This document shows positions 1 through 39,417 of a DNA stretch of 39,417 nucleotides, one piece after another; within the stretch, counting starts at the first letter, position 1, and the number at the start of each line of letters is the position of its first letter. The stretch lies in IMG/VR virus record IMGVR_UViG_2671181055_000004; one strand, written 5' to 3'. This DNA comes from a virus (lineage: Duplodnaviria > Heunggongvirae > Uroviricota > Caudoviricetes). Made by a program: the position numbers and the translations under genes. Under the pieces are notes generated by a model. That model saw only the letters and a program-made list of their open reading frames with translations, made no database searches and was not told the DNA's origin.

Positions 1-70
1 TCGGTTTACGGGAAACGGTAAACAGGGCGGCGAATGCTCTGCCATCGGACGGCACCGCCGTTGCCGCGAA
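1..70. repeat. Left inverted repeat of the invertible tail-fiber segment (window starts inside the crossover site)
   Basis: nt 1-70 is the reverse complement of 1250-1319 with one mismatch (position 38 vs 1282); weaker similarity continues to about 130 bp. Confidence 0.85.
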
Positions 71-362
71 TAGACTCGCCACCCCAAGAAATATTAATGG
101 GGTTCCCTTTGACGGGACGCAGGACATAAACATCACTTCTGGTATAACACAGCAGGATGCGGATTCCCGATATATCCAGGATATCAGGCTGGGAGCAGAG
201 AACAGGCAGGTAATGTACGGTGGGGCATATTACTCTGCGTACGGTAATGTTATGGCAGGCCTGCAGATTGACAGTAAAGTTGATGCTTCAAACGATTTTA
301 TAGCATTCAGACCCCTGCAAAAATTAGTCGGAGGTACATGGATTACGGTATCTCAGTTATAA
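1..362 (+). CDS. Tail fiber protein, variable C-terminal segment (Sv-like; 5' partial, fused to a constant part outside this contig)
   Basis: Open frame from position 3 to TAA at 360-362; translation ...ETVNRAANALPSDGTAVAANRLATPRNINGVPFDGTQDINI... shows tail-fiber repeat motifs; no start codon because the frame enters through the inverted repeat. Confidence 0.7.
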   Translation, partial: GLRETVNRAANALPSDGTAVAANRLATPRNINGVPFDGTQDINITSGITQQDADSRYIQDIRLGAENRQVMYGGAYYSAYGNVMAGLQIDSKVDASNDFIAFRPLQKLVGGTWITVSQL

Positions 363-413
363 ATAGTCAGTAAATAATATATTTTAAAACAGATTTATTT
401 CCAGGAGGATTTT

Positions 414-935
414 ATGGAACTAAAAAATATAACCCGTTATTATCCTGAAAATATGCCATATGGTAATAATGTTCAGTATTTCCAGAGTGAAGATGGTAAG
501 GATTTCTACGAATCCCTGCCATTATTCACCAAAAAATATAAACTTTGCATAACACCTGACAGCGGCGTTATCTGCTCAATATCACAGGACGCCTCGGCGC
601 TGTATCCTGCGGGGTTTTCTGTGGTTGAGGTCGATGAACTCCCTGAAGGCACGGATATTTCAGGAAACTGGAAGTTTGATAATGGCATAATCTCCCGTAT
701 TCCGGTTAACTACGCAAGAAAACTGGAAGCAATGCGCCAGTCATATCTTAATCAGGCATATGAAAAAATTAATGACTGGAGAACGGAGCTACAACTGGGC
801 ACCATCAGCGATGAAGACAGAGCAGCACTTACCCAATGGATGGCATACATCAGTCAGGTGAAGAAAATGGAACTACCCGCCATTAAAACAGAAGCTGAAT
901 TTAACGCCATTAAATGGCCTGAGCAGCCACAGTAA
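414..935 (+). CDS. Tail fiber assembly chaperone (Tfa / Mu U-like)
   Basis: 173-aa ORF directly after the tail-fiber C-terminus; C-terminal region resembles the Tfa family; lower GC than surrounding genes, typical of tfa. Confidence 0.8.
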   Translation: MELKNITRYYPENMPYGNNVQYFQSEDGKDFYESLPLFTKKYKLCITPDSGVICSISQDASALYPAGFSVVEVDELPEGTDISGNWKFDNGIISRIPVNYARKLEAMRQSYLNQAYEKINDWRTELQLGTISDEDRAALTQWMAYISQVKKMELPAIKTEAEFNAIKWPEQPQ

Positions 936-2054: not shown

Positions 2055-4109
2055 ATGTCAGACTCCAAGTGGAAAATGCTCTCCGCCATGCCCGGAGAGT
2101 TTTCAGTCAAGGTTGCCGGTGGCACGGTGGCATTTATTGAAAGCCCTTTCCGCCCTTCGGGTAATAAAGGGGGGATCACCTTCGCAGACTGCGTGATCCG
2201 CTTCAGCACGAAAGAGCCATTATGGGTAATGCCGGTATCCGGTAATCCCAGTGCAGAAATCACCAGTTCAGGCGTGACTGGCATCATTCCAATCACATCT
2301 GACGTGGCCGGAACGCTCACGCCCTCCGACTGGAATGCACCGGATAACGCCGGGCCTTCCGGTAGCACGAATGGCAGCAGTTCAGAGCCGGAATATTACT
2401 TTGTTGTCATTCTCGCGGGTCAGTCAAATGGCATGGCCTACGGCGAGGGGCTGCCGTTACCGGATTCGTTTGACCGCCCGGACCCACGCATTAAGCAACT
2501 GGCACGCCGCAGTACGGTAACGCCCAACGGTACGTCGTGTACATACAACGACATCATTCCGGCAGACCACTGCCTGCATGATGTTCAGGATATGAGCGGG
2601 ATAAACCACCCGAAAGCTGATCTGGCAAAAGGCCAGTACGGGACTGTCGGTCAGGGGTTGCATATTGCCAAAAAACTGCTTCCCTATATCCCACAGAATG
2701 CCGGGATACTTCTGGTGCCCTGTTGTCGTGGCGGGTCAGCATTCACCACTGGAGCCGACGGCTCATTCAGTGAGGCCAGCGGTGCTTCCGCTGATTCTTC
2801 ACGCTGGGGGGCCGGTAAACCTCTGTATCAGGACCTGGTAAGCCGCACCAAAGTCGCGCTGGCGAAAAACCCGAAAAACAAACTTCTGGCTGTGGTCTGG
2901 ATGCAGGGAGAGGCAGACCTTGCCTCAGGAAGCCAGCAGCATAATAGTTTATTCACGGCCATGGTTCAGCAGTTCAGAACTGACCTGGCTCCGCTTGCTG
3001 CGCAGTGCGTGAGTGGAAATGCCACCACGGTGCCGTGGATTTGCGGTGATACCACGTATTACTGGAAAAACGCTGGCACCGATAAATATGAGGCAGTATA
3101 CGGTGGCTACAAAGGCAAGGAAGCACAGAAAATTTTCTTTGTACCGTTCCTGACGGATGAGAATGGACAGAGCACGCCAACGAATGCTCCGGCGGAAGAC
3201 CCGGATATTGTGGCTGTCGGGTATTACGGTGCAGCATCCCGAACCCAGGGCAGTTTTGTTTCGACACAGCGTGACAGCCATTTCAGCTCATGGGCACGCA
3301 GGGGCGTCATTTCAGACCGTCTGGCCTCAGCTATTATGCTCCATGCAGGGCGCACGGCTGAACTGATGCGTGGGCAGACCGTGACACCACCGGATGAGAA
3401 GCCGTCACCTGATACACCATCAAAACCGTCCACGCCACCCGCAGACACCACGACGATGAGTACGCTATTTGCTTACCGGGCATCTGAGTCTGAAGGACGG
3501 TTGACACCACAGGGTTGGGCTGCCGGAGGTGGCAAGGCTCAAATCGTGGATGATGCCGGAGCCAGCGGGGGTAAGGCAATGAAACTGACCAAGGAAACAG
3601 GAAGAGCCCCCTGGTACCTTGAGCATGATGCTGGTAATGGTGCGGACCTGCTGGGTAAAGGTGGTCTTGTCAGTTGTCGTTTTAAACTCGATGGCGCGCT
3701 TACGGCTAATCAGTACGCACTGGCGCTGTACTGGCCGGTTTCTGCCCTGCCGCAAGGGGTTACTCTGGAAGGAAATGCCGGTCATAACCTGCTGGCATCG
3801 TTCTACGTACAGAGCGATGCCACAGACCTTAACGTGATGTATCACAAAGGAAACACGGCGCAGAACACGAAGCTGGGGTCATTCGGCGCATTTAATAACG
3901 AATGGCATACGCTGGGCTTCCGTTTTGCCGGTAACAACAGTATTGAGGTGACGCCGGTCATTGATGGTAAGGACGGGACACCATTCATGCTGTCGCAGTC
4001 TCCGGTCGGCACGTTTACGGCAGACAAGTTGCGCGTGACCGATATCACTAAAAATGCGACTTACCCGGTACTGATTGACAGTATCGTGGTGGAAGTGAAT
4101 AACGCGTAA
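2055..4109 (+). CDS. SGNH/SASA-type carbohydrate O-acetylesterase with Pro/Thr-rich linker and C-terminal beta-sandwich-like domain (NanS-p-like sialate O-acetylesterase candidate)
   Basis: 684-aa ORF with RBS-like AGGCAGAAAAGACG before the ATG; motifs FVVILAGQSNGMAYGEG and VVWMQGEADLASG resemble sialate O-acetylesterase/DUF303 blocks; linker PPDEKPSPDTPSKPSTPPADTTT. Confidence 0.55.
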   Translation: MSDSKWKMLSAMPGEFSVKVAGGTVAFIESPFRPSGNKGGITFADCVIRFSTKEPLWVMPVSGNPSAEITSSGVTGIIPITSDVAGTLTPSDWNAPDNAGPSGSTNGSSSEPEYYFVVILAGQSNGMAYGEGLPLPDSFDRPDPRIKQLARRSTVTPNGTSCTYNDIIPADHCLHDVQDMSGINHPKADLAKGQYGTVGQGLHIAKKLLPYIPQNAGILLVPCCRGGSAFTTGADGSFSEASGASADSSRWGAGKPLYQDLVSRTKVALAKNPKNKLLAVVWMQGEADLASGSQQHNSLFTAMVQQFRTDLAPLAAQCVSGNATTVPWICGDTTYYWKNAGTDKYEAVYGGYKGKEAQKIFFVPFLTDENGQSTPTNAPAEDPDIVAVGYYGAASRTQGSFVSTQRDSHFSSWARRGVISDRLASAIMLHAGRTAELMRGQTVTPPDEKPSPDTPSKPSTPPADTTTMSTLFAYRASESEGRLTPQGWAAGGGKAQIVDDAGASGGKAMKLTKETGRAPWYLEHDAGNGADLLGKGGLVSCRFKLDGALTANQYALALYWPVSALPQGVTLEGNAGHNLLASFYVQSDATDLNVMYHKGNTAQNTKLGSFGAFNNEWHTLGFRFAGNNSIEVTPVIDGKDGTPFMLSQSPVGTFTADKLRVTDITKNATYPVLIDSIVVEVNNA

Positions 4110-4123
4110 GCAGGATAAAAAAA

Positions 4124-4158
4124 TGCCGCCGGTAAGGGAAAACAAGAAACCGGCGGCA
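4124..4158 (-). terminator. GC-rich hairpin with adjacent A/T tract (terminator-like when read on the minus strand)
   Basis: TGCCGCCGGT ... ACCGGCGGCA stem (10 bp) with a 15-nt loop, preceded on the plus strand by a run of A (a T-run 3' of the stem on the minus strand). Confidence 0.3.
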
Positions 4159-4253
4159 AAAAGATCGTTATATCCAAAGCAAAAAATGCAGTGCACCTTT
4201 TTACCTAACAGATATTACCGGTGTCAACACCATGTCAATAATTGGGAGGGATA

Positions 4254-4436
4254 ATGACATTTTTACAGCTTATTTTATTGTATTTCTGCACGGCAGTATG
4301 TGCGTTATATCTGGTGAGTGGTGGTTATAAGGCCATCAGAAATTATGTTCGCCGCAAAATTGAGGACGCAGCAGCTGAAAAACTCAGTAAAACAGCGCAG
4401 GTAACTCCGCTCCCAAAAGACCCGACCCAGCCCTGA
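4254..4436 (+). CDS. Small membrane protein (60 aa, one predicted TM helix, basic/charged tail)
   Basis: ATG at 4254 with GGGAGGG 4 nt upstream; MTFLQLILLYFCTAVCALYLVSGGYKAIRNYVRRK...; alternative TTG start at 4242. Confidence 0.4.
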   Translation: MTFLQLILLYFCTAVCALYLVSGGYKAIRNYVRRKIEDAAAEKLSKTAQVTPLPKDPTQP

Positions 4437-4471
4437 TTGCAGGGCTTTATTCCCGCATAAGGAGGATATAC

Positions 4472-4726
4472 ATGCCAGAAATTAAAGGCACCGTCACTGA
4501 AGACCTGGTAAAACAGGCACTGTATTCCGGTGAAGTAAATAAGTTGCTGAAAGCGCAGGTCCGCAAGGATTTTGAGGCACAAATCGACACTTACGTTGAT
4601 GAAGTGCTGGCAAAACTTATTGGGCCAGCAGTTGCGGCCAGTGATGCTGATAATGAGCCGAAAACCGACGCGCAGCCAGAGCAACCAGACCCGGCTCAGC
4701 CCGGAACTGACAGTACCATGATGTAA
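4472..4726 (+). CDS. Hypothetical 84-aa protein with acidic Pro-rich C-terminus
   Basis: Strong SD AAGGAGG 6 nt before ATG 4472; followed by a hairpin at 4733-4758. Confidence 0.5.
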   Translation: MPEIKGTVTEDLVKQALYSGEVNKLLKAQVRKDFEAQIDTYVDEVLAKLIGPAVAASDADNEPKTDAQPEQPDPAQPGTDSTMM

Positions 4727-6798: not shown

Positions 6799-7166
6799 AC
6801 GTCAGCGGGACCAAGACTGTTTTTTGTGGCAAGCGTCCCCAGACCAAGATAACCACGGGCCAGACGCTGGGCCTCCGCACCGGCATCAGCAATTTCTTTC
6901 AGGTTATTTTTCCGGGAAAAGGCATTCGCAGCGATAATGGCTTTAATGGACAGCGTAAGCTGGTTTAACTGCGCCTTATCCGGCTGAATACTGGCTTCAG
7001 CCAGAATATTCAGCAGTTCGGCCTGGAGAATATTCAGCCAGTCCTGACCAATCCAGCTGATACCTTTTTGTCCGTCACCTTCGGTAAACCAGGTGGTGGT
7101 ATTACTCTGCGCCGGTGCCAGCGCAGGCATATTCGCCACGCCGGAATTATTATCAACATGAAACAT
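6799..7166 (-). CDS. Tail fiber protein, N-terminal constant part (3' truncated by the gap)
   Basis: ATG at 7166; MFHVDNNSGVANMPALAPAQSNTTTWFTEGDGQKGISWIGQDWLNILQAELL... resembles tail-fiber N-terminal domains; the frame runs into the N gap. Confidence 0.7.
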
Positions 7167-21230: not shown

Positions 21231-21351
21231 ATTGCCTCCGCATAAAGGATGAATATAAAATAAACAGGCGGTCAGTGTACGCTTAACTGGTAAAGTCGGT
21301 GCCTGCCTCCGGGTGGATCATGTATGCGGGTTCGACCCCCGCCACTGACCG

Positions 21352-27053: not shown

Positions 27054-27357
27054 TGTGTTTTTTCCTTACAGCCTGCTCCAGCAGCAGTTCGTTCTGATGG
27101 GAGACGGATTTCAGGGTGGCATTGGTGGCCTTAAGCTCACCGCGCAGGGTGGTGATTTCGATATTGAGTCTGTTCACCTCCTGCTGCGTGGGCAGGCCGG
27201 AAATCCGGCTCTCCACCCGCTCAACCCGGTCGGAGAGTTTTTCAAAGGCCTCGCGGGGGACAAAGGTTTTGCGCATCAGCGCCATGAAGATCCCCCCGGC
27301 TGTGGCCGTTGCCGACAGGATCGGCACGACATAATCTTTAACGATGCTGACCCACAT
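27046..27357 (-). CDS. Membrane protein with N-terminal TM helix and coiled coil (Mu gp25-like)
   Basis: 103 aa, MWVSIVKDYVVPILSATATAGGIFMALM... then a heptad-like region. Confidence 0.5.
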   Translation of the reverse strand: MWVSIVKDYVVPILSATATAGGIFMALMRKTFVPREAFEKLSDRVERVESRISGLPTQQEVNRLNIEITTLRGELKATNATLKSVSHQNELLLEQAVRKKHNE

Positions 27358-27565
27358 GACCGGCCTCCATGATGTTCTGGCAGTTCACACAACGGATGGC
27401 ATCCGGCACGGCAACCAGACGGGCAGCCGGAATGTCACCCCCGCAGTCCGCGCATACACGCCTGCCCGGTGTCTCCGCCACCCGGCGCTTACGTGTCAGC
27501 CGGTCACAAAGGGCGCGTTCTGTTGCACGCTCCATGACTGCCTGAGCACAATCTGAATCATCCAT
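27338..27565 (-). CDS. TraR/DksA-family C4 zinc-finger protein
   Basis: MDDSDCAQAVMERATERALCDRLTRKRRVAETPGRRVCADCGGDIPAARL...CVNC; start set at the internal ATG 27565. Confidence 0.7.
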   Translation of the reverse strand: MDDSDCAQAVMERATERALCDRLTRKRRVAETPGRRVCADCGGDIPAARLVAVPDAIRCVNCQNIMEAGHVGQHR

Positions 27566-28812: not shown

Positions 28813-29235
28813 TCAGAAAAGCCGTGGCTGCGTGCGTTCCTGATGCAGGCGACGCTGGTTGCGGATAACGGAGTAAATCTGCGTCTCTGACATCTGGTAG
28901 TGGCGGCGCAGGGTTTCAATTTTTTCGCCCTGGCTCCAGCGGGAAAAAATTTCATTATTGCGCAGTTCGGTGAAAAGGGATTCACCGACCGGGAGATAAT
29001 AACCACGCCCGCCCATGTACCCGGCCTGTGCGGCTGCAACCTTACGGGCAAGCATTCCCGCCTGAGCAGGTTCAATCCCCTGACGGTGCAGTTCAGCACT
29101 GATCACATCAACCAGGTCCCGCAGCGTGCCGGGCCAGTTCTTTTTCAGCTCATCATCAGGAATATCATCCAGACGGTCAATCAGCGCGTGCAGCTGTTCG
29201 CTGTCACCAAACATGCTCATCTGTGTTTCAGCCAT
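28813..29235 (-). CDS. Mor/C-family transcriptional activator (position directly upstream of lys suggests the late activator C)
   Basis: 140 aa with ...GGRGYYLPVGESLFTELRNNEIFSRW... and a C-terminal HTH, matching the Mor/C family pattern. Confidence 0.8.
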   Translation of the reverse strand: MAETQMSMFGDSEQLHALIDRLDDIPDDELKKNWPGTLRDLVDVISAELHRQGIEPAQAGMLARKVAAAQAGYMGGRGYYLPVGESLFTELRNNEIFSRWSQGEKIETLRRHYQMSETQIYSVIRNQRRLHQERTQPRLF

Positions 29236-29277: not shown

Positions 29278-29301
29278 AAATCCCGCGCTGTGGCGGGATT
29301 T
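29278..29301 (-). terminator. Rho-independent terminator on the minus strand between the GemA-like gene and the activator gene
   Basis: 9-bp stem AAATCCCGC/GCGGGATTT with a 6-nt loop, followed on the minus strand by TTTTATTTTAAA. Confidence 0.55.
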
Positions 29302-30397: not shown

Positions 30398-30541
30398 TTA
30401 TTCATCCTCACAATTTATACATGCAGTGTCGTCGCCCATATCGCAGTGGTTACATTTTATCTCACCACAATGTGGGCACTCTTTCAGATACTCCGGGTCC
30501 TCATTTCCACAGGTGGGACATTCAACAATTTGCTCATCCAT
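30398..30541 (-). CDS. 47-aa zinc-ribbon protein with four CxxC pairs (below the ORF-track size cutoff)
   Basis: MDEQIVECPTCGNEDPEYLKECPHCGEIKCNHCDMGDDTACINCEDE; ATG 30541 overlaps the stop of the upstream gene (ATGGATGA). Confidence 0.45.
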   Translation of the reverse strand: MDEQIVECPTCGNEDPEYLKECPHCGEIKCNHCDMGDDTACINCEDE

Positions 30542-30866
30542 TATGTATCCCCTGTAATTCCGGCAAGGCCGAAAGATGGCACCAGTGCGTCACCTGTCCG
30601 TCCTCATCTTCAAGGCAGGCTCCGGTTTCTTCATCAATAAAAAAGCCTTCATACCCCATATGGCCGATGCGCAGTTCCTGTTGGTCACCATACTGAACAA
30701 TCAGCACGACAGCCTCCATATCAGGCGGAAATGCGTCATCCAGTGAATGCCAGGGATAACCGCGCAAATCCCCGAAATAAACGCCGGTCAGCGTTCCGCC
30801 ACAGAGCGGCATTCCGGCGGCACACACAAGAGGTTCATCTGATTCAACAAATAAGGTCGTTATCAT
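30534..30866 (-). CDS. Hypothetical acidic 110-aa protein
   Basis: ATG 30866 overlaps the upstream stop (ATGA); Asp/Glu-rich (e.g. IDEETGACLEDEDGQ). Confidence 0.5.
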   Translation of the reverse strand: MITTLFVESDEPLVCAAGMPLCGGTLTGVYFGDLRGYPWHSLDDAFPPDMEAVVLIVQYGDQQELRIGHMGYEGFFIDEETGACLEDEDGQVTHWCHLSALPELQGIHNG

Positions 30867-31414
30867 GGCGTTAACTCCCGTAATACAGCGTCCTCGGCAG
30901 TCCGGCGACGGTAATAAACTGCGTGAGCAGAATGTTCAGATATTCCAAACTTTTCGCCAATTTCCCGGAATGACAGACGGCGTGGGTAATCGGAATCACG
31001 CAGCTCACGTATAAGACGTACATCATCATCAGATATGCGCGTGCCGGGGCGTAACTCTCCGCACTTTGTTAATCCAGCACCAATCATTCCTGCCCGACAT
31101 CTGACAGAATCTTTATTACGTCCGAGATATTCTCCCATTTGCTGGCAGGTCATTGTTCTGGCATTTTTTCGAATAAACTTATCTTCATCAGGTGTAAATC
31201 TTGGGTGTTTATATTTCAGTAACTCCGGGTATGAACTGCGCAATACACCAGTCCGGTTATATACAGCCCAGACAGTTCTTTTTATTCTGGCAGCAATATC
31301 CTTAACCGGGGTGGATGAATAAAGCGCAATCAGCAGCGCATCTTCTTCAGGTGTCCACGGACGGACATGAGCGGGGGCGCGACCTTTTAGTCCCATGGGT
31401 TGTAATTTCATCAT
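30863..31414 (-). CDS. Hypothetical DNA-binding protein with three helix-turn-helix-like repeats
   Basis: 183 aa; repeats WTPEEDALLIALY..., FTPDEDKFIRKNA..., ISDDDVRLIRELR... each followed by a basic helix. Confidence 0.45.
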   Translation of the reverse strand: MMKLQPMGLKGRAPAHVRPWTPEEDALLIALYSSTPVKDIAARIKRTVWAVYNRTGVLRSSYPELLKYKHPRFTPDEDKFIRKNARTMTCQQMGEYLGRNKDSVRCRAGMIGAGLTKCGELRPGTRISDDDVRLIRELRDSDYPRRLSFREIGEKFGISEHSAHAVYYRRRTAEDAVLRELTP

Positions 31415-31417
31415 GCA

Positions 31418-31933
31418 TCACCCCCTGACTCGCTTTTCAGCAGCATAAAACTCATCAGACAGTATTTCGGTCATTTTCTGTTTTGCGGGTTTTACGCCGC
31501 ACTGAAGGTAAATCACATCGTCAACGCAGAACCACTTCACAGGGCCAAACAGGATTGCCGAGAAATCAATACCCAACCAGAACAACAGCGCATCGGTTCT
31601 GGCATACGTGACGGGCGAATATTCACGCCACAGACTGTTCAGTTCATCAGAGGCAACACGCAGGGTTTTAGGGATACGTGATGTGCGCGGTGTGCAGCTC
31701 CAGCCATTCGACGCAGTCGGTTTTCGCCATAAGTCGCGATGAAAAGGATATTTGTCCTCCGTAAAACGCAGTCCCTTAAAGTAAAATCCACTGATACCGG
31801 ATACAAATACCGACCGGCACGCAACATTCAGCACGGCCTCAAGGCGTTTTGCCTCATCCTTAACTTTCTGGCAGTCCTGCTGGTATTTTTGCCACGCAGC
31901 CAGCGCGGAAGGGTTTGATGTTTTAAAGAACAT
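31418..31933 (-). CDS. Hypothetical early protein (171 aa)
   Basis: ORF with start overlapping the upstream stop (TAATG). Confidence 0.45.
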   Translation of the reverse strand: MFFKTSNPSALAAWQKYQQDCQKVKDEAKRLEAVLNVACRSVFVSGISGFYFKGLRFTEDKYPFHRDLWRKPTASNGWSCTPRTSRIPKTLRVASDELNSLWREYSPVTYARTDALLFWLGIDFSAILFGPVKWFCVDDVIYLQCGVKPAKQKMTEILSDEFYAAEKRVRG

Positions 31934-32466
31934 TACGCCACCTCCGCAGATATCCCGGCAGGCGCTGCTGTCCGGTCAACAATCAGGTAGCGCAGAACAT
32001 GTTCAGTGATATTCCAGCCGCTTAAACCGCAGATAATGACGCCCAGGCGTATGTCGATATACGCCATCACAAACTGGGGCACGCCTTCTTTCATGGCCTG
32101 CTCATCAACTTCAGCCACCACATAAACGGTTTCACAGGTCAGAACGCCCTGAGCAAATTCCCACGCCATCGACGGAATATCATGCCCCTCAATCCATGGC
32201 AGGGATTTTCTGAAGCCGCACCACTGAACATCATCAGCCGCAGATTCCTGGCTGCATTTGCGACGAACCGGCTGCACCGGGCGGGGACGCGGAATATCAT
32301 AAAAACCGTTACATTCCGTCAGCACGCCTGCATCAACCGCATCACGCAGAAAATAAACCATGGAGGATGGCGGCATATTCATTTTTTCAGCCAGTACACC
32401 GCAGGTCAGGCGGCCATAAATACACAGCCAGTTTTTAACCCCTTCAAGCACTTTTGCATCAATCAT
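31933..32466 (-). CDS. Hypothetical early protein (177 aa) with possible N-terminal winged helix
   Basis: ATG 32466; no recognised family. Confidence 0.45.
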   Translation of the reverse strand: MIDAKVLEGVKNWLCIYGRLTCGVLAEKMNMPPSSMVYFLRDAVDAGVLTECNGFYDIPRPRPVQPVRRKCSQESAADDVQWCGFRKSLPWIEGHDIPSMAWEFAQGVLTCETVYVVAEVDEQAMKEGVPQFVMAYIDIRLGVIICGLSGWNITEHVLRYLIVDRTAAPAGISAEVA

Positions 32467-32611
32467 GATTTATTTCCCCACCACATTATTAATGACGATA
32501 TAAACGTATTTCATATTTCTTAACCCTTATTTTCTGTTTTCAGGCGCAAGCAGTCCCCTGACGCGAGCGCCATAATTAAAATGAAGTGATATTTAATTGA
32601 TTAATGCGGTG

Positions 32612-39118: not shown

Positions 39119-39417
39119 CGCTTCAGTTCCTGTATCAGCAGAGTCAGGAGCTTTTCGCTGACATTGCCATTGAAGCGGAGCGTCCCGTGCCGGAACGTTA
39201 CCTCACAGCTGATACTGAGGGTTTTCGGGTCCTCTGCGAGCGATTCTGGCTGTTCGGCAGCTGCATCGAGAGTCACAGGAAGTAGCTGGGGGCTCTCTGA
39301 AGAAGGTAATAGCTGAGGTGTACTGGCAATAGCGGACACTACCATTTGTTCTTTTTTTAAGCAGCCATCTGATGATATTTTTCCCTGAAGGCTGCCGGGG
39401 AGATATTCCCCAGACGA
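38808..39417 (-). mobile_element. IS66-family element (tnpA-tnpB), interrupted in tnpB by the prophage
   Basis: tnpA/tnpB pair with overlapping stop/start (ATGA); tnpB is cut at ...GIDWR and its 3' end is found beyond the other phage end at 6464-6504. Confidence 0.65.
39115..39345 (-). CDS. tnpA: IS66-family accessory protein TnpA (orf1), possibly N-terminally longer
   Basis: 76-aa ORF translationally coupled to tnpB; assigned by synteny rather than by a recognised motif. Confidence 0.5.
   Translation of the reverse strand: MVVSAIASTPQLLPSSESPQLLPVTLDAAAEQPESLAEDPKTLSISCEVTFRHGTLRFNGNVSEKLLTLLIQELKR

Follow-up and report, generated by a model that had tools for sequence, protein, structure and literature searches.

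The semi-essential early (SE/SEE) region of phage Mu is made up of poorly conserved small genes, mostly of undescribed function (PMC3820752; PMC8705779), which have been proposed to act on the host (PMC3820752). The Mor/C activators have an N-terminal dimerisation domain, a β-strand linker and one C-terminal helix-turn-helix (HTH), and sit as dimers or tetramers on dyad sites (PMC4390567; bioRxiv 10.1101/2025.05.02.651988). In phage T5, the D5 gene lies between the ligase gene and the helicase/primase/polymerase genes. The classical reference on D5 is reportedly McCorquodale et al. 1979, judging by the title under which it is cited. In the T5 GenBank record, D5 is entered as binding DNA, as required for DNA replication and late transcription and as involved in expression shutoff, and the protein is very abundant in T5 and BF23 lysates (PMC10644984). 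Here we examine a gene for a 183-amino-acid (aa) protein in the early region of a Mu-like prophage, IMG/VR record IMGVR_UViG_2671181055_000004, whose whole stretch of 39,417 base pairs (bp) is called the window below. We found that this protein belongs to a family that includes T5 D5 and Mu gp9, and that where the family occurs bears no relation to Mor/C copy number.

The window is 100% identical to positions 3724606-3764022 of Escherichia coli strain 600029 (NZ_CM128582.1) and comprises a complete Mu-like prophage that reads forward on the minus strand. In RefSeq order, the prophage starts with the repressor, a Ner-like gene, MuA, MuB, small early genes and gam; it continues with the genes for proteins of 177, 171 and 183 aa, further small genes and gemA (gp16); and it ends with one Mor-family gene, lysozyme, head and tail genes, the invertase, Com and Mom. 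The stretch 30863-32466 (minus strand) is part of the SE/SEE operon, after gam. An earlier reading, made from the sequence alone, had placed three open reading frames (ORFs) here; all three are present, and RefSeq annotates the same coding sequences identically in the 600029 prophage:

31933..32466, minus strand: 177-aa Mu gp11 homologue (Pfam PF25754 Gp11_C 5.7e-41; phrog_1949 4e-105)
31418..31933, minus strand: 171-aa Mu gp12 homologue (tblastn; phrog_2314 1e-84)
30863..31414, minus strand: 183-aa three-HTH (Myb/SANT-like, T5 D5-like) protein (phrog_323 5e-53; PGAP WP_000977059.1)

These ORFs form one tightly packed, translationally coupled unit; the 177-aa stop overlaps the 171-aa start (TAATG), the 171-aa gene is followed after 3 nucleotides (nt) by the 183-aa gene, which begins with ATGATG, and the end of the 183-aa gene runs into the start codon of a 110-aa ORF (ATGA). 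The three products had been called uncharacterised, a description that fits the gp11 and gp12 families in that their function is unassigned; nonetheless, both are named Mu families with Pfam entries, and the 183-aa protein is already recognised by PGAP (WP_000977059.1, ‘SANT/Myb-like DNA-binding domain-containing protein’) and by PHROGs (phrog_323, ‘transcriptional regulator, D5-like’). What we add to this is modest: an explicit link between the 183-aa protein, Mu gp9 and T5 D5, a series in repeat number, and the lack of any tie to Mor/C copy number.

Repeats, predicted fold and family of the 183-aa protein

The 183-aa protein is strongly basic (isoelectric point, pI, 9.9) and carries the motifs WTPEED, FTPDED and ISDDD at residues 20, 73 and 127, respectively. 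An AlphaFold2 (AF2) model built from a 22-sequence alignment (mean predicted local distance difference test score, pLDDT, 84.6) is all-helical, with no strands, and predicts a disordered N-terminus, three consecutive three-helix bundles and a C-terminal helix at residues 173-181:

31238..31366, minus strand: repeat 1, residues ~17-59, Myb-like bundle (AF2 helices 22-32, 37-43 and 48-59; Pfam Myb_DNA-binding 9.5e-4, below cut-off)
31085..31207, minus strand: repeat 2, residues ~70-110, Myb-like bundle (AF2 helices 75-84, 90-97 and 101-110; aligns to c-Myb R3 and to Mu gp9 5-50)
30872..31048, minus strand: repeat 3 with the C-terminal helix, residues ~123-181, divergent HTH (AF2 helices 129-140, 149-156, 160-169 and 173-181; HTH_AsnC-type, HTH_10 and Sigma70_r4 matches, below cut-off; aligns to Mu gp9 58-96)

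The triple repeat that had been read from the three motifs was borne out in part. Repeats 1 and 2 matched each other in a profile-profile comparison (hhalign, probability 98%, E 1e-13) and are a genuine Myb-like duplication; repeat 3, in contrast, gave an hhalign E of ~1e-3 against repeats 1/2 (probability 12-24%; pairwise shuffle p 0.02-0.45), and it shares their three-helix HTH architecture in a divergent form whose status as a copy of repeats 1/2 is not demonstrable. Over residues 18-106 the family profile matched c-Myb R2R3 (PDB 1h88; E 1.2e-6) and B-Myb (E 9.6e-5), and some family members (P0028, P0044) pass the gathering thresholds of Pfam PF00249 and PF13921. The likeness to c-Myb R2R3 lies in a W/F-T-x-E-E-D at the start of helix 1, the three-helix bundle and the two tandem repeats; unlike in eukaryotic Myb, only the first aromatic residue of the Trp triad is kept (judged by eye, with W20 and F73 at the first position, V or T at the second, and an uncertain alignment of helix 3), the third module is not Myb-like, and there are no further domains. 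Foldseek neighbours of the model in the PDB include SNAPc4 Myb repeats, tandem homeodomains, the Tc3 bipartite domain, Pax paired domains and Trichomonas vaginalis Myb2, a coherent list of multi-HTH DNA binders that, as a comparison of predicted structure, supports the architecture only. Against predicted viral structures (BFVD), 25 phage proteins matched at E <= 1e-3, several of them from jumbo phage Goslar and others with names such as ‘Myb-like domain-containing protein’, ‘AsnC family protein’ and ‘D5 protein’.

The 183-aa protein aligned with phrog_323 over residues 2-182 (profile positions 80-256 of 319; E 5.3e-53), a family in which T5 D5 scores 1.2e-71 and Mu gp9 5.2e-29, and of which Citrobacter and Salmonella P2-like homologues are also members. 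Comparison of the family alignment with T5 D5 (T5.118) by hhalign paired residues 18-171 with D5 71-232 (probability 96.4%, E 1.1e-9), and a local hmmsearch recovered D5 at E 1.3e-6; the alignment covers all three HTH repeats, with ~29% identity in the aligned part. Both proteins are products of early genes, but T5 is strictly lytic whereas the 183-aa protein comes from a temperate phage; D5 is longer (255 aa, with some 70 additional residues at the N-terminus and an extended C-terminus, compared with 16 residues before repeat 1 in the 183-aa protein), and its pI is near-neutral (6.3 vs. 9.9). Note that the phenotypes in replication and late expression are described for T5 D5 only and for no temperate-phage member.

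Mu gp9 (E8, 99 aa) matched residues 66-168 of the 183-aa protein, that is, repeats 2 and 3 (BLASTP, 27% identity, E 2e-7). Both are encoded in early operons of transposable phages; gp9 has two repeats as against three, and its gene lies upstream of gam, whereas the 183-aa gene lies past the gp12-like gene, at the place where Mu has gp13 (60 aa). The window has a single D5-like ORF and no gp9-type gene upstream of gam. Arranged by repeat number, the family forms a series of two repeats in Mu gp9, three in the 183-aa protein, and three with an N-terminal extension in T5 D5. Beyond these members, a profile search of 1.84 billion representatives returned 12,863 hits at E <= 1e-3, many of them long proteins with five to nine repeats and one (P0030) fused to a helicase; the D5-like HTH-repeat architecture is very common in phages and bacteria. 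A literature search returned no paper on Mu gp9, gp11, gp12 or phage Myb-like proteins. We also noted the entry IPR001005, which we take to be SANT/Myb, elsewhere in T5. It is assigned in GenBank, together with the helicase domain IPR001410, to the 928-aa ‘replication origin binding’ protein of gene T5.108 (L014 4546-7332).

Distribution, alleles and the single Mor/C gene

The sequence-only reading had recognised one Mor/C-family activator in this phage, as against two in Mu, and had suggested on that ground that the 183-aa protein may take the middle-regulator role. The count itself was correct; a six-frame scan of the window with a Mor/C hidden Markov model (HMM) of our own construction gave one hit and no second Mor/C gene, and PGAP annotates the same one only:

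28813..29235, minus strand: only Mor/C-family activator (Pfam Mor 6.7e-31), directly upstream of the lysozyme gene, as Mu C is

The product has 41% identity with Mu C, against 30% with Mu Mor. The 183-aa protein resembles Mor/C in being a small phage HTH protein, a type expressed before the late genes in Mu-like phages; however, it differs in having three tandem HTH bundles, no predicted strands and no sequence match, and it gave no hit to Pfam Mor (PF08765) at E <= 1. More tellingly, six-frame HMM scans found a D5-like gene (gp9) together with two Mor/C genes in Mu, no D5-like ORF at E <= 1 in D3112, BcepMu or Klebsiella ST405-OXA48phi1.1 (one Mor/C gene each), and a D5-like gene with no Mor/C gene in P2-like prophages and T5. 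Three of the six Mor/C-carrying phages sampled have a D5-like gene and three do not, with no association with single-Mor genomes. Since D5-like genes occur with two, one or no Mor/C genes and are missing from three single-Mor phages, the inference of a middle-regulator role fails. Among the Mu-like phages checked, it is common to find one Mor/C activator only, and no substitute is needed.

Close full-length homologues of the 183-aa protein occur in two settings. The first is Mu-like prophages of E. coli and Salmonella, in which the order gp11-gp12-D5-like gene-108/110-aa ORF is kept and a single Mor gene lies between gemA and lysozyme. The second is P2-like prophages of Salmonella and Citrobacter (phage Shae_phiSM), in which the D5-like gene lies in the early operon after a Dam methylase gene and, in the Salmonella prophages, overlaps the start of the gene for the replication endonuclease gpA; these prophages have a gene for Ogr and lack Mor/C. 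An integrase-carrying prophage has a more distant member of the family in its early-right operon. The 183-aa gene is, on this distribution, a mobile early-operon accessory gene, found repeatedly near replication functions.

The gene is also unusually divergent between close relatives. Between the window and strain SCU-106, the flanking proteins are 92-98% identical and the 183-aa protein 72%, and the synonymous divergence (dS) of the gene is 0.62 vs. 0.14-0.25 in the flanks, with a ratio of nonsynonymous to synonymous divergence (dN/dS) of 0.27. Identity in a sliding window is ~95% over the first ~120 nt, falls to 55-85%, and returns to more than 90% exactly at the 3′ end, so that the mosaic patch is intragenic (30880-31300, minus strand). 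We rejected positive selection as the cause, as dN/dS is low and dS is raised too; because dS is raised as well, the divergence reflects an older allele brought in by recombination. We conclude that one allele of the 183-aa gene has been exchanged for another by recombination, with purifying selection acting on the gene.

In Myb and other HTH domains, the third helix is the recognition helix. The third helices of bundles 1, 2 and 3 are the most variable elements of the family (column entropy 1.54, 1.68 and 1.93 bits, respectively), and this variability, together with the intragenic mosaic patch, suggests that alleles of the protein read different DNA sequences. Helices 1 and 2 of repeat 3, on the contrary, are nearly invariant (0.47 and 0.20 bits), and the conserved surface that they present (DDDVRLIRELRD...FREIGEKF) is perhaps kept for a partner.

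Allele A of the D5-like gene is paired with Mor allele 1 in the window and TOE17 but with Mor allele 2 in SJ7. The SJ7 pairing led us to reject co-inheritance of the alleles, and since they reassort freely, the two genes are no co-adapted pair. As a separate observation, the two E. coli alleles of the Mor-family gene differ from each other by a dS of ~1.6, far above that of the flanking genes.

Directly past the gemA stop, and 42 nt before the Mor/C gene, we observed a strong terminator-like hairpin, AAATCCCGCCACAGCGCGGGATTT, with a T-rich run (29278-29301, minus strand). It is kept almost base-for-base in all E. coli and Salmonella relatives examined, while the sequence downstream diverges; in Mu, the corresponding hairpin follows mor. 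With the hairpin between gemA and the Mor/C gene, the sole activator of this phage lies beyond the early terminator. The 42 nt from hairpin to Mor start are not conserved among relatives and contain no recognisable promoter, for which reason read-through is the simplest answer to how the Mor/C gene is expressed. Two candidate sites were considered here and set aside. A promoter like Mu Pm in the gemA-Mor intergenic region was dropped, given that it is the hairpin that is conserved and not the ‘CCTGTG’ -10-like stretch. The motif AAATCC[CT]GCC, present in four exact copies, all on the minus strand and two of them in the intergenic regions flanking Mor, was not retained as a Mor/C site; the other two copies lie inside structural genes, and there is no common downstream -10.

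Weighing the readings

On balance, we favour the reading that the 183-aa protein is an early accessory multi-HTH binder of double-stranded DNA, of the T5 D5/Mu gp9 family, which recognises an extended site as a monomer and modulates phage DNA transactions and is not a dedicated activator of Mor/C or late promoters. Within this reading, we infer from fold and homology that the protein very probably binds DNA, and we hold with similarly high confidence that it is not a substitute for Mor. The protein would be made early and would lie as a monomer on double-stranded DNA, with the third helix of each bundle entering successive major-groove positions over roughly 20-30 bp, a binding mode modelled on c-Myb R2R3, Tc3, Pax and Cbp1. 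The last of these, Sulfolobus Cbp1 (2lvs), is also a sequence-profile hit (E 5e-4) and is likewise small, consists only of tandem HTH bundles and binds DNA as a monomer; it is, however, an archaeal CRISPR-repeat-binding protein, and its likeness to the 183-aa protein is weak and carries no link to CRISPR repeats. So bound, the 183-aa protein may serve as a dispensable helper in phage DNA transactions, in replication or transposition and/or in the early-to-late transcription switch. Read-through from the early promoter could extend to the gene of the single C-like Mor/C protein, which would then act on late promoters, in a regulatory cascade that would need no extra activator.

Several points weigh against this reading. 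Its DNA binding is deduced from fold and homology, and no candidate binding site for the protein was found. The Pfam Myb models fall short of their cut-offs on the 183-aa protein itself (PF00249, 19.7 bits vs. 24.4; PF13921, 16.5 vs. 22.9). The likeness to Myb/SANT or sigma-region-4 modules that had been noticed from the motifs is upheld for Myb by the c-Myb R2R3 match and the three bundles, but not for sigma-70 region 4, which stays below threshold (Sigma70_r4 PF04545, E 0.14, 12.2 bits vs. 24.1; TIGR02937, E 0.094, 12.3 bits vs. 42.9). An HTH_AsnC-type match at residues 130-164 is below cut-off as well (18.8 bits vs. 27), as is HTH_10; PGAP labels sister alleles ‘AsnC family protein’, which looks to be a misnomer, given that the HTH match is sub-threshold and that the model has no β structure where AsnC/Lrp proteins have a C-terminal α/β RAM domain. 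Foldseek matches of the whole model to the PDB are weak (best Cbp1 2lvs, E 0.034, probability 0.99), a weakness that we attribute to flexible linkage of the bundles. The D5 phenotype is not simply transferable, considering the remote similarity (~29%) and the N-terminal region that only D5 has; the tie of D5 to late transcription also leaves room for a regulatory role of the 183-aa protein. Finally, the conserved hairpin before the Mor/C gene implies that something may be needed for expression of that gene.

We reasoned that four other accounts deserve weighing against the accessory binder. The protein could be a host-directed regulator, as the sequence-only reading had also proposed, which binds chromosomal sites and reprograms host transcription during the lytic cycle or, through weak early transcription, in the lysogenic state. 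Its gene is mobile and accessory and is found in temperate phages of Enterobacteriaceae of three unrelated kinds (Mu-like, P2-like and integrase-carrying), a sharing that fits a function aimed at the common host and not at the promoters of one phage, and it would stand well beside the host-modulating SEE genes kil, gam and gemA in a region whose genes have been proposed to act on the host (PMC3820752). Against this, alleles from one and the same host species differ strongly in their recognition helices, which is unexpected for a conserved host site, no host target can be named, and the lytic T5 relative acts on phage replication and expression; we consider a host-directed role unlikely.

The protein might instead be an abundant, sequence-independent architectural protein like T5 D5, which coats or organises double-stranded DNA, supports replicative transposition and, indirectly, promotes early shutoff and late expression. 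The homology to D5 over all three repeats, the abundance of D5 in T5/BF23 lysates (PMC10644984), the effect of D5 on both replication and late expression, the strongly basic character of the 183-aa protein (pI 9.9) and the adjacency of its gene to replication genes in P2-like phages are all in keeping with such a role. D5 itself, however, is longer and lacks the basic character (pI 6.3), and a conserved scaffold bearing variable recognition helices is more typical of sequence-specific binders, which makes an architectural role, in our judgement, rather improbable.

A wider reading would join T5 D5, Mu gp9, the 183-aa protein and the gpA-coupled P2-like homologues into one widespread, unrecognised class of phage early proteins that times the switch from early expression to replication and late expression through allele-specific phage DNA sites; in this Mu-like lineage, its action could include helping RNA polymerase to pass, or restart after, the hairpin before the Mor/C gene. 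We regard this as speculative and give it little credence.

The middle-regulator account, in which the 183-aa protein, made from the early transcript, stands in for Mor by activating a promoter ahead of the Mor/C gene or certain late promoters, would accommodate the presence of only one Mor/C gene, the position of that gene beyond a conserved hairpin (it may need activation or antitermination of its own) and the record of the remote homologue T5 D5 as required for late transcription. However, the family occurs in Mu with both Mor and C, in Ogr-controlled P2-like prophages and in T5, and is absent from D3112, BcepMu and Klebsiella ST405-OXA48phi1.1; the protein has neither a Mor/C fold nor a Pfam match; the 42 nt between hairpin and Mor are unconserved and lack a recognisable promoter; D5-like and Mor alleles reassort; and the gene lies in a region that is dispensable in Mu (PMC3820752; PMC8705779). 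This account is very unlikely. Least probable is that the protein is no regulator at all, being a free-standing DNA-targeting module akin to the N-termini of phage HNH endonucleases and methylases, or else counters host defence by occupying either DNA or a protein of a defence system: tblastn did match the N-terminal parts of mycobacteriophage HNH endonuclease and DNA methylase genes (35% identity, 2e-7), with weak PHROG hits to HNH endonuclease families, endonucleases among the BFVD fold matches and one homologue adjoining a ‘Sequestin’ gene and an HNH gene, but the 183 aa include no catalytic domain, PADLOC gave no hit, and the adjacent genes in the Mu-like context include no nuclease or methylase.

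Neighbouring genes and significance

The 177- and 171-aa proteins follow gam in the order gp11-like, gp12-like, as in Mu. Residues 90-167 of the former match PF25754 Gp11_C with 139 bits (cut-off 27), and the protein is 67% identical to P0238 (UniRef name ‘Uncharacterized protein 11’), which we take as Mu gp11; it has 222 homologues, and among the matches listed all are from E. coli, Salmonella or Enterobacterales. Over 99% of its length, the 171-aa protein shares 55% identity with the translation of Mu 6954-7460 (tblastn, 6e-57), and D108 gene 12 matches likewise; its assignment to Pfam PF26885 Phage_Mu_Gp12 is through homologues that are 94% identical and carry that domain, its own sequence being unscored against the model. 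Neither protein had a PDB match by single-sequence search, and for the 171-aa protein profile search and Foldseek with a poor AF2 model (pLDDT 64, from a 19-sequence alignment) gave no PDB match either. Both are conserved accessory early proteins whose function is unassigned even in Mu, and they are not new genes. On the other side of the 183-aa gene lies its coupled neighbour:

30534..30866, minus strand: 110-aa ORF, coupled (ATGA) to the 183-aa gene (phrog_6925 2e-51; DUF551 only 0.062)

This 108/110-aa ORF is a conserved partner of the 183-aa gene in the Mu-like E. coli and Salmonella relatives, where the order is kept. NCBIfam and PADLOC scans of seven early ORFs gave nothing useful. A 47-aa ORF with CxxC pairs, zinc-ribbon-like (30398-30541, minus strand; phrog_5584 3e-26), is absent from RefSeq; it probably represents a small gene overlooked in the low-GC stretch.

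Other features of the prophage were observed along the way. Between gam and the gp11-like gene lies a 145-bp AT-rich gap (32467-32611, GC 0.36), and related prophages have an extra DUF5420 gene (~190 aa) at this place (L004 5971-6549, L005 5924-6502 and, in Salmonella, L008 6368-6946), which marks the gap as an insertion/deletion hot spot. Salmonella Mu-like prophages have, in the early region and a few genes past the D5-like gene, a gene of the dATP/dGTP pyrophosphohydrolase family (PF04447; L008 9040-9987, L010 2624-3700) that is absent from the window. Just past the lysis genes lies a gene for a 75-aa TraR/DksA-type C4 zinc-finger protein (27338-27565, minus strand; Pfam zf-dskA_traR 8e-12), another small potential regulator. 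RefSeq places a ‘tRNA-OTHER’ at 21271-21350, between head-morphogenesis and virion-morphogenesis genes; ARAGORN, run on the whole window, found no tRNA. Between the invertase and com/mom, where Mu has no such gene at the equivalent position, lies a 684-aa cargo gene (2529-4583, minus strand; SASA carbohydrate-esterase domain 1.5e-13, DUF6645 7e-68), which could be a moron that modifies surface polysaccharides. The prophage is inserted in sgrR, fragments of which stand at both ends of the window (1-610 and 39246-39417); sgrR is the host sugar-stress regulator gene, and the insertion disrupts it.

For the common lineage of E. coli and Salmonella Mu-like prophages, these results tidy the annotation of three adjacent early genes as gp11-like, gp12-like and D5-like three-HTH, and they identify the ‘AsnC family protein’ label on sister alleles as misleading. 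The picture of Mu-type regulation is unchanged by the 183-aa protein. The results also connect T5 D5 with gp9 of Mu, the best-studied transposable phage, in which gp9 has no assigned function; as D5 is the only family member with a described phenotype, this link provides a concrete hypothesis for Mu genetics.

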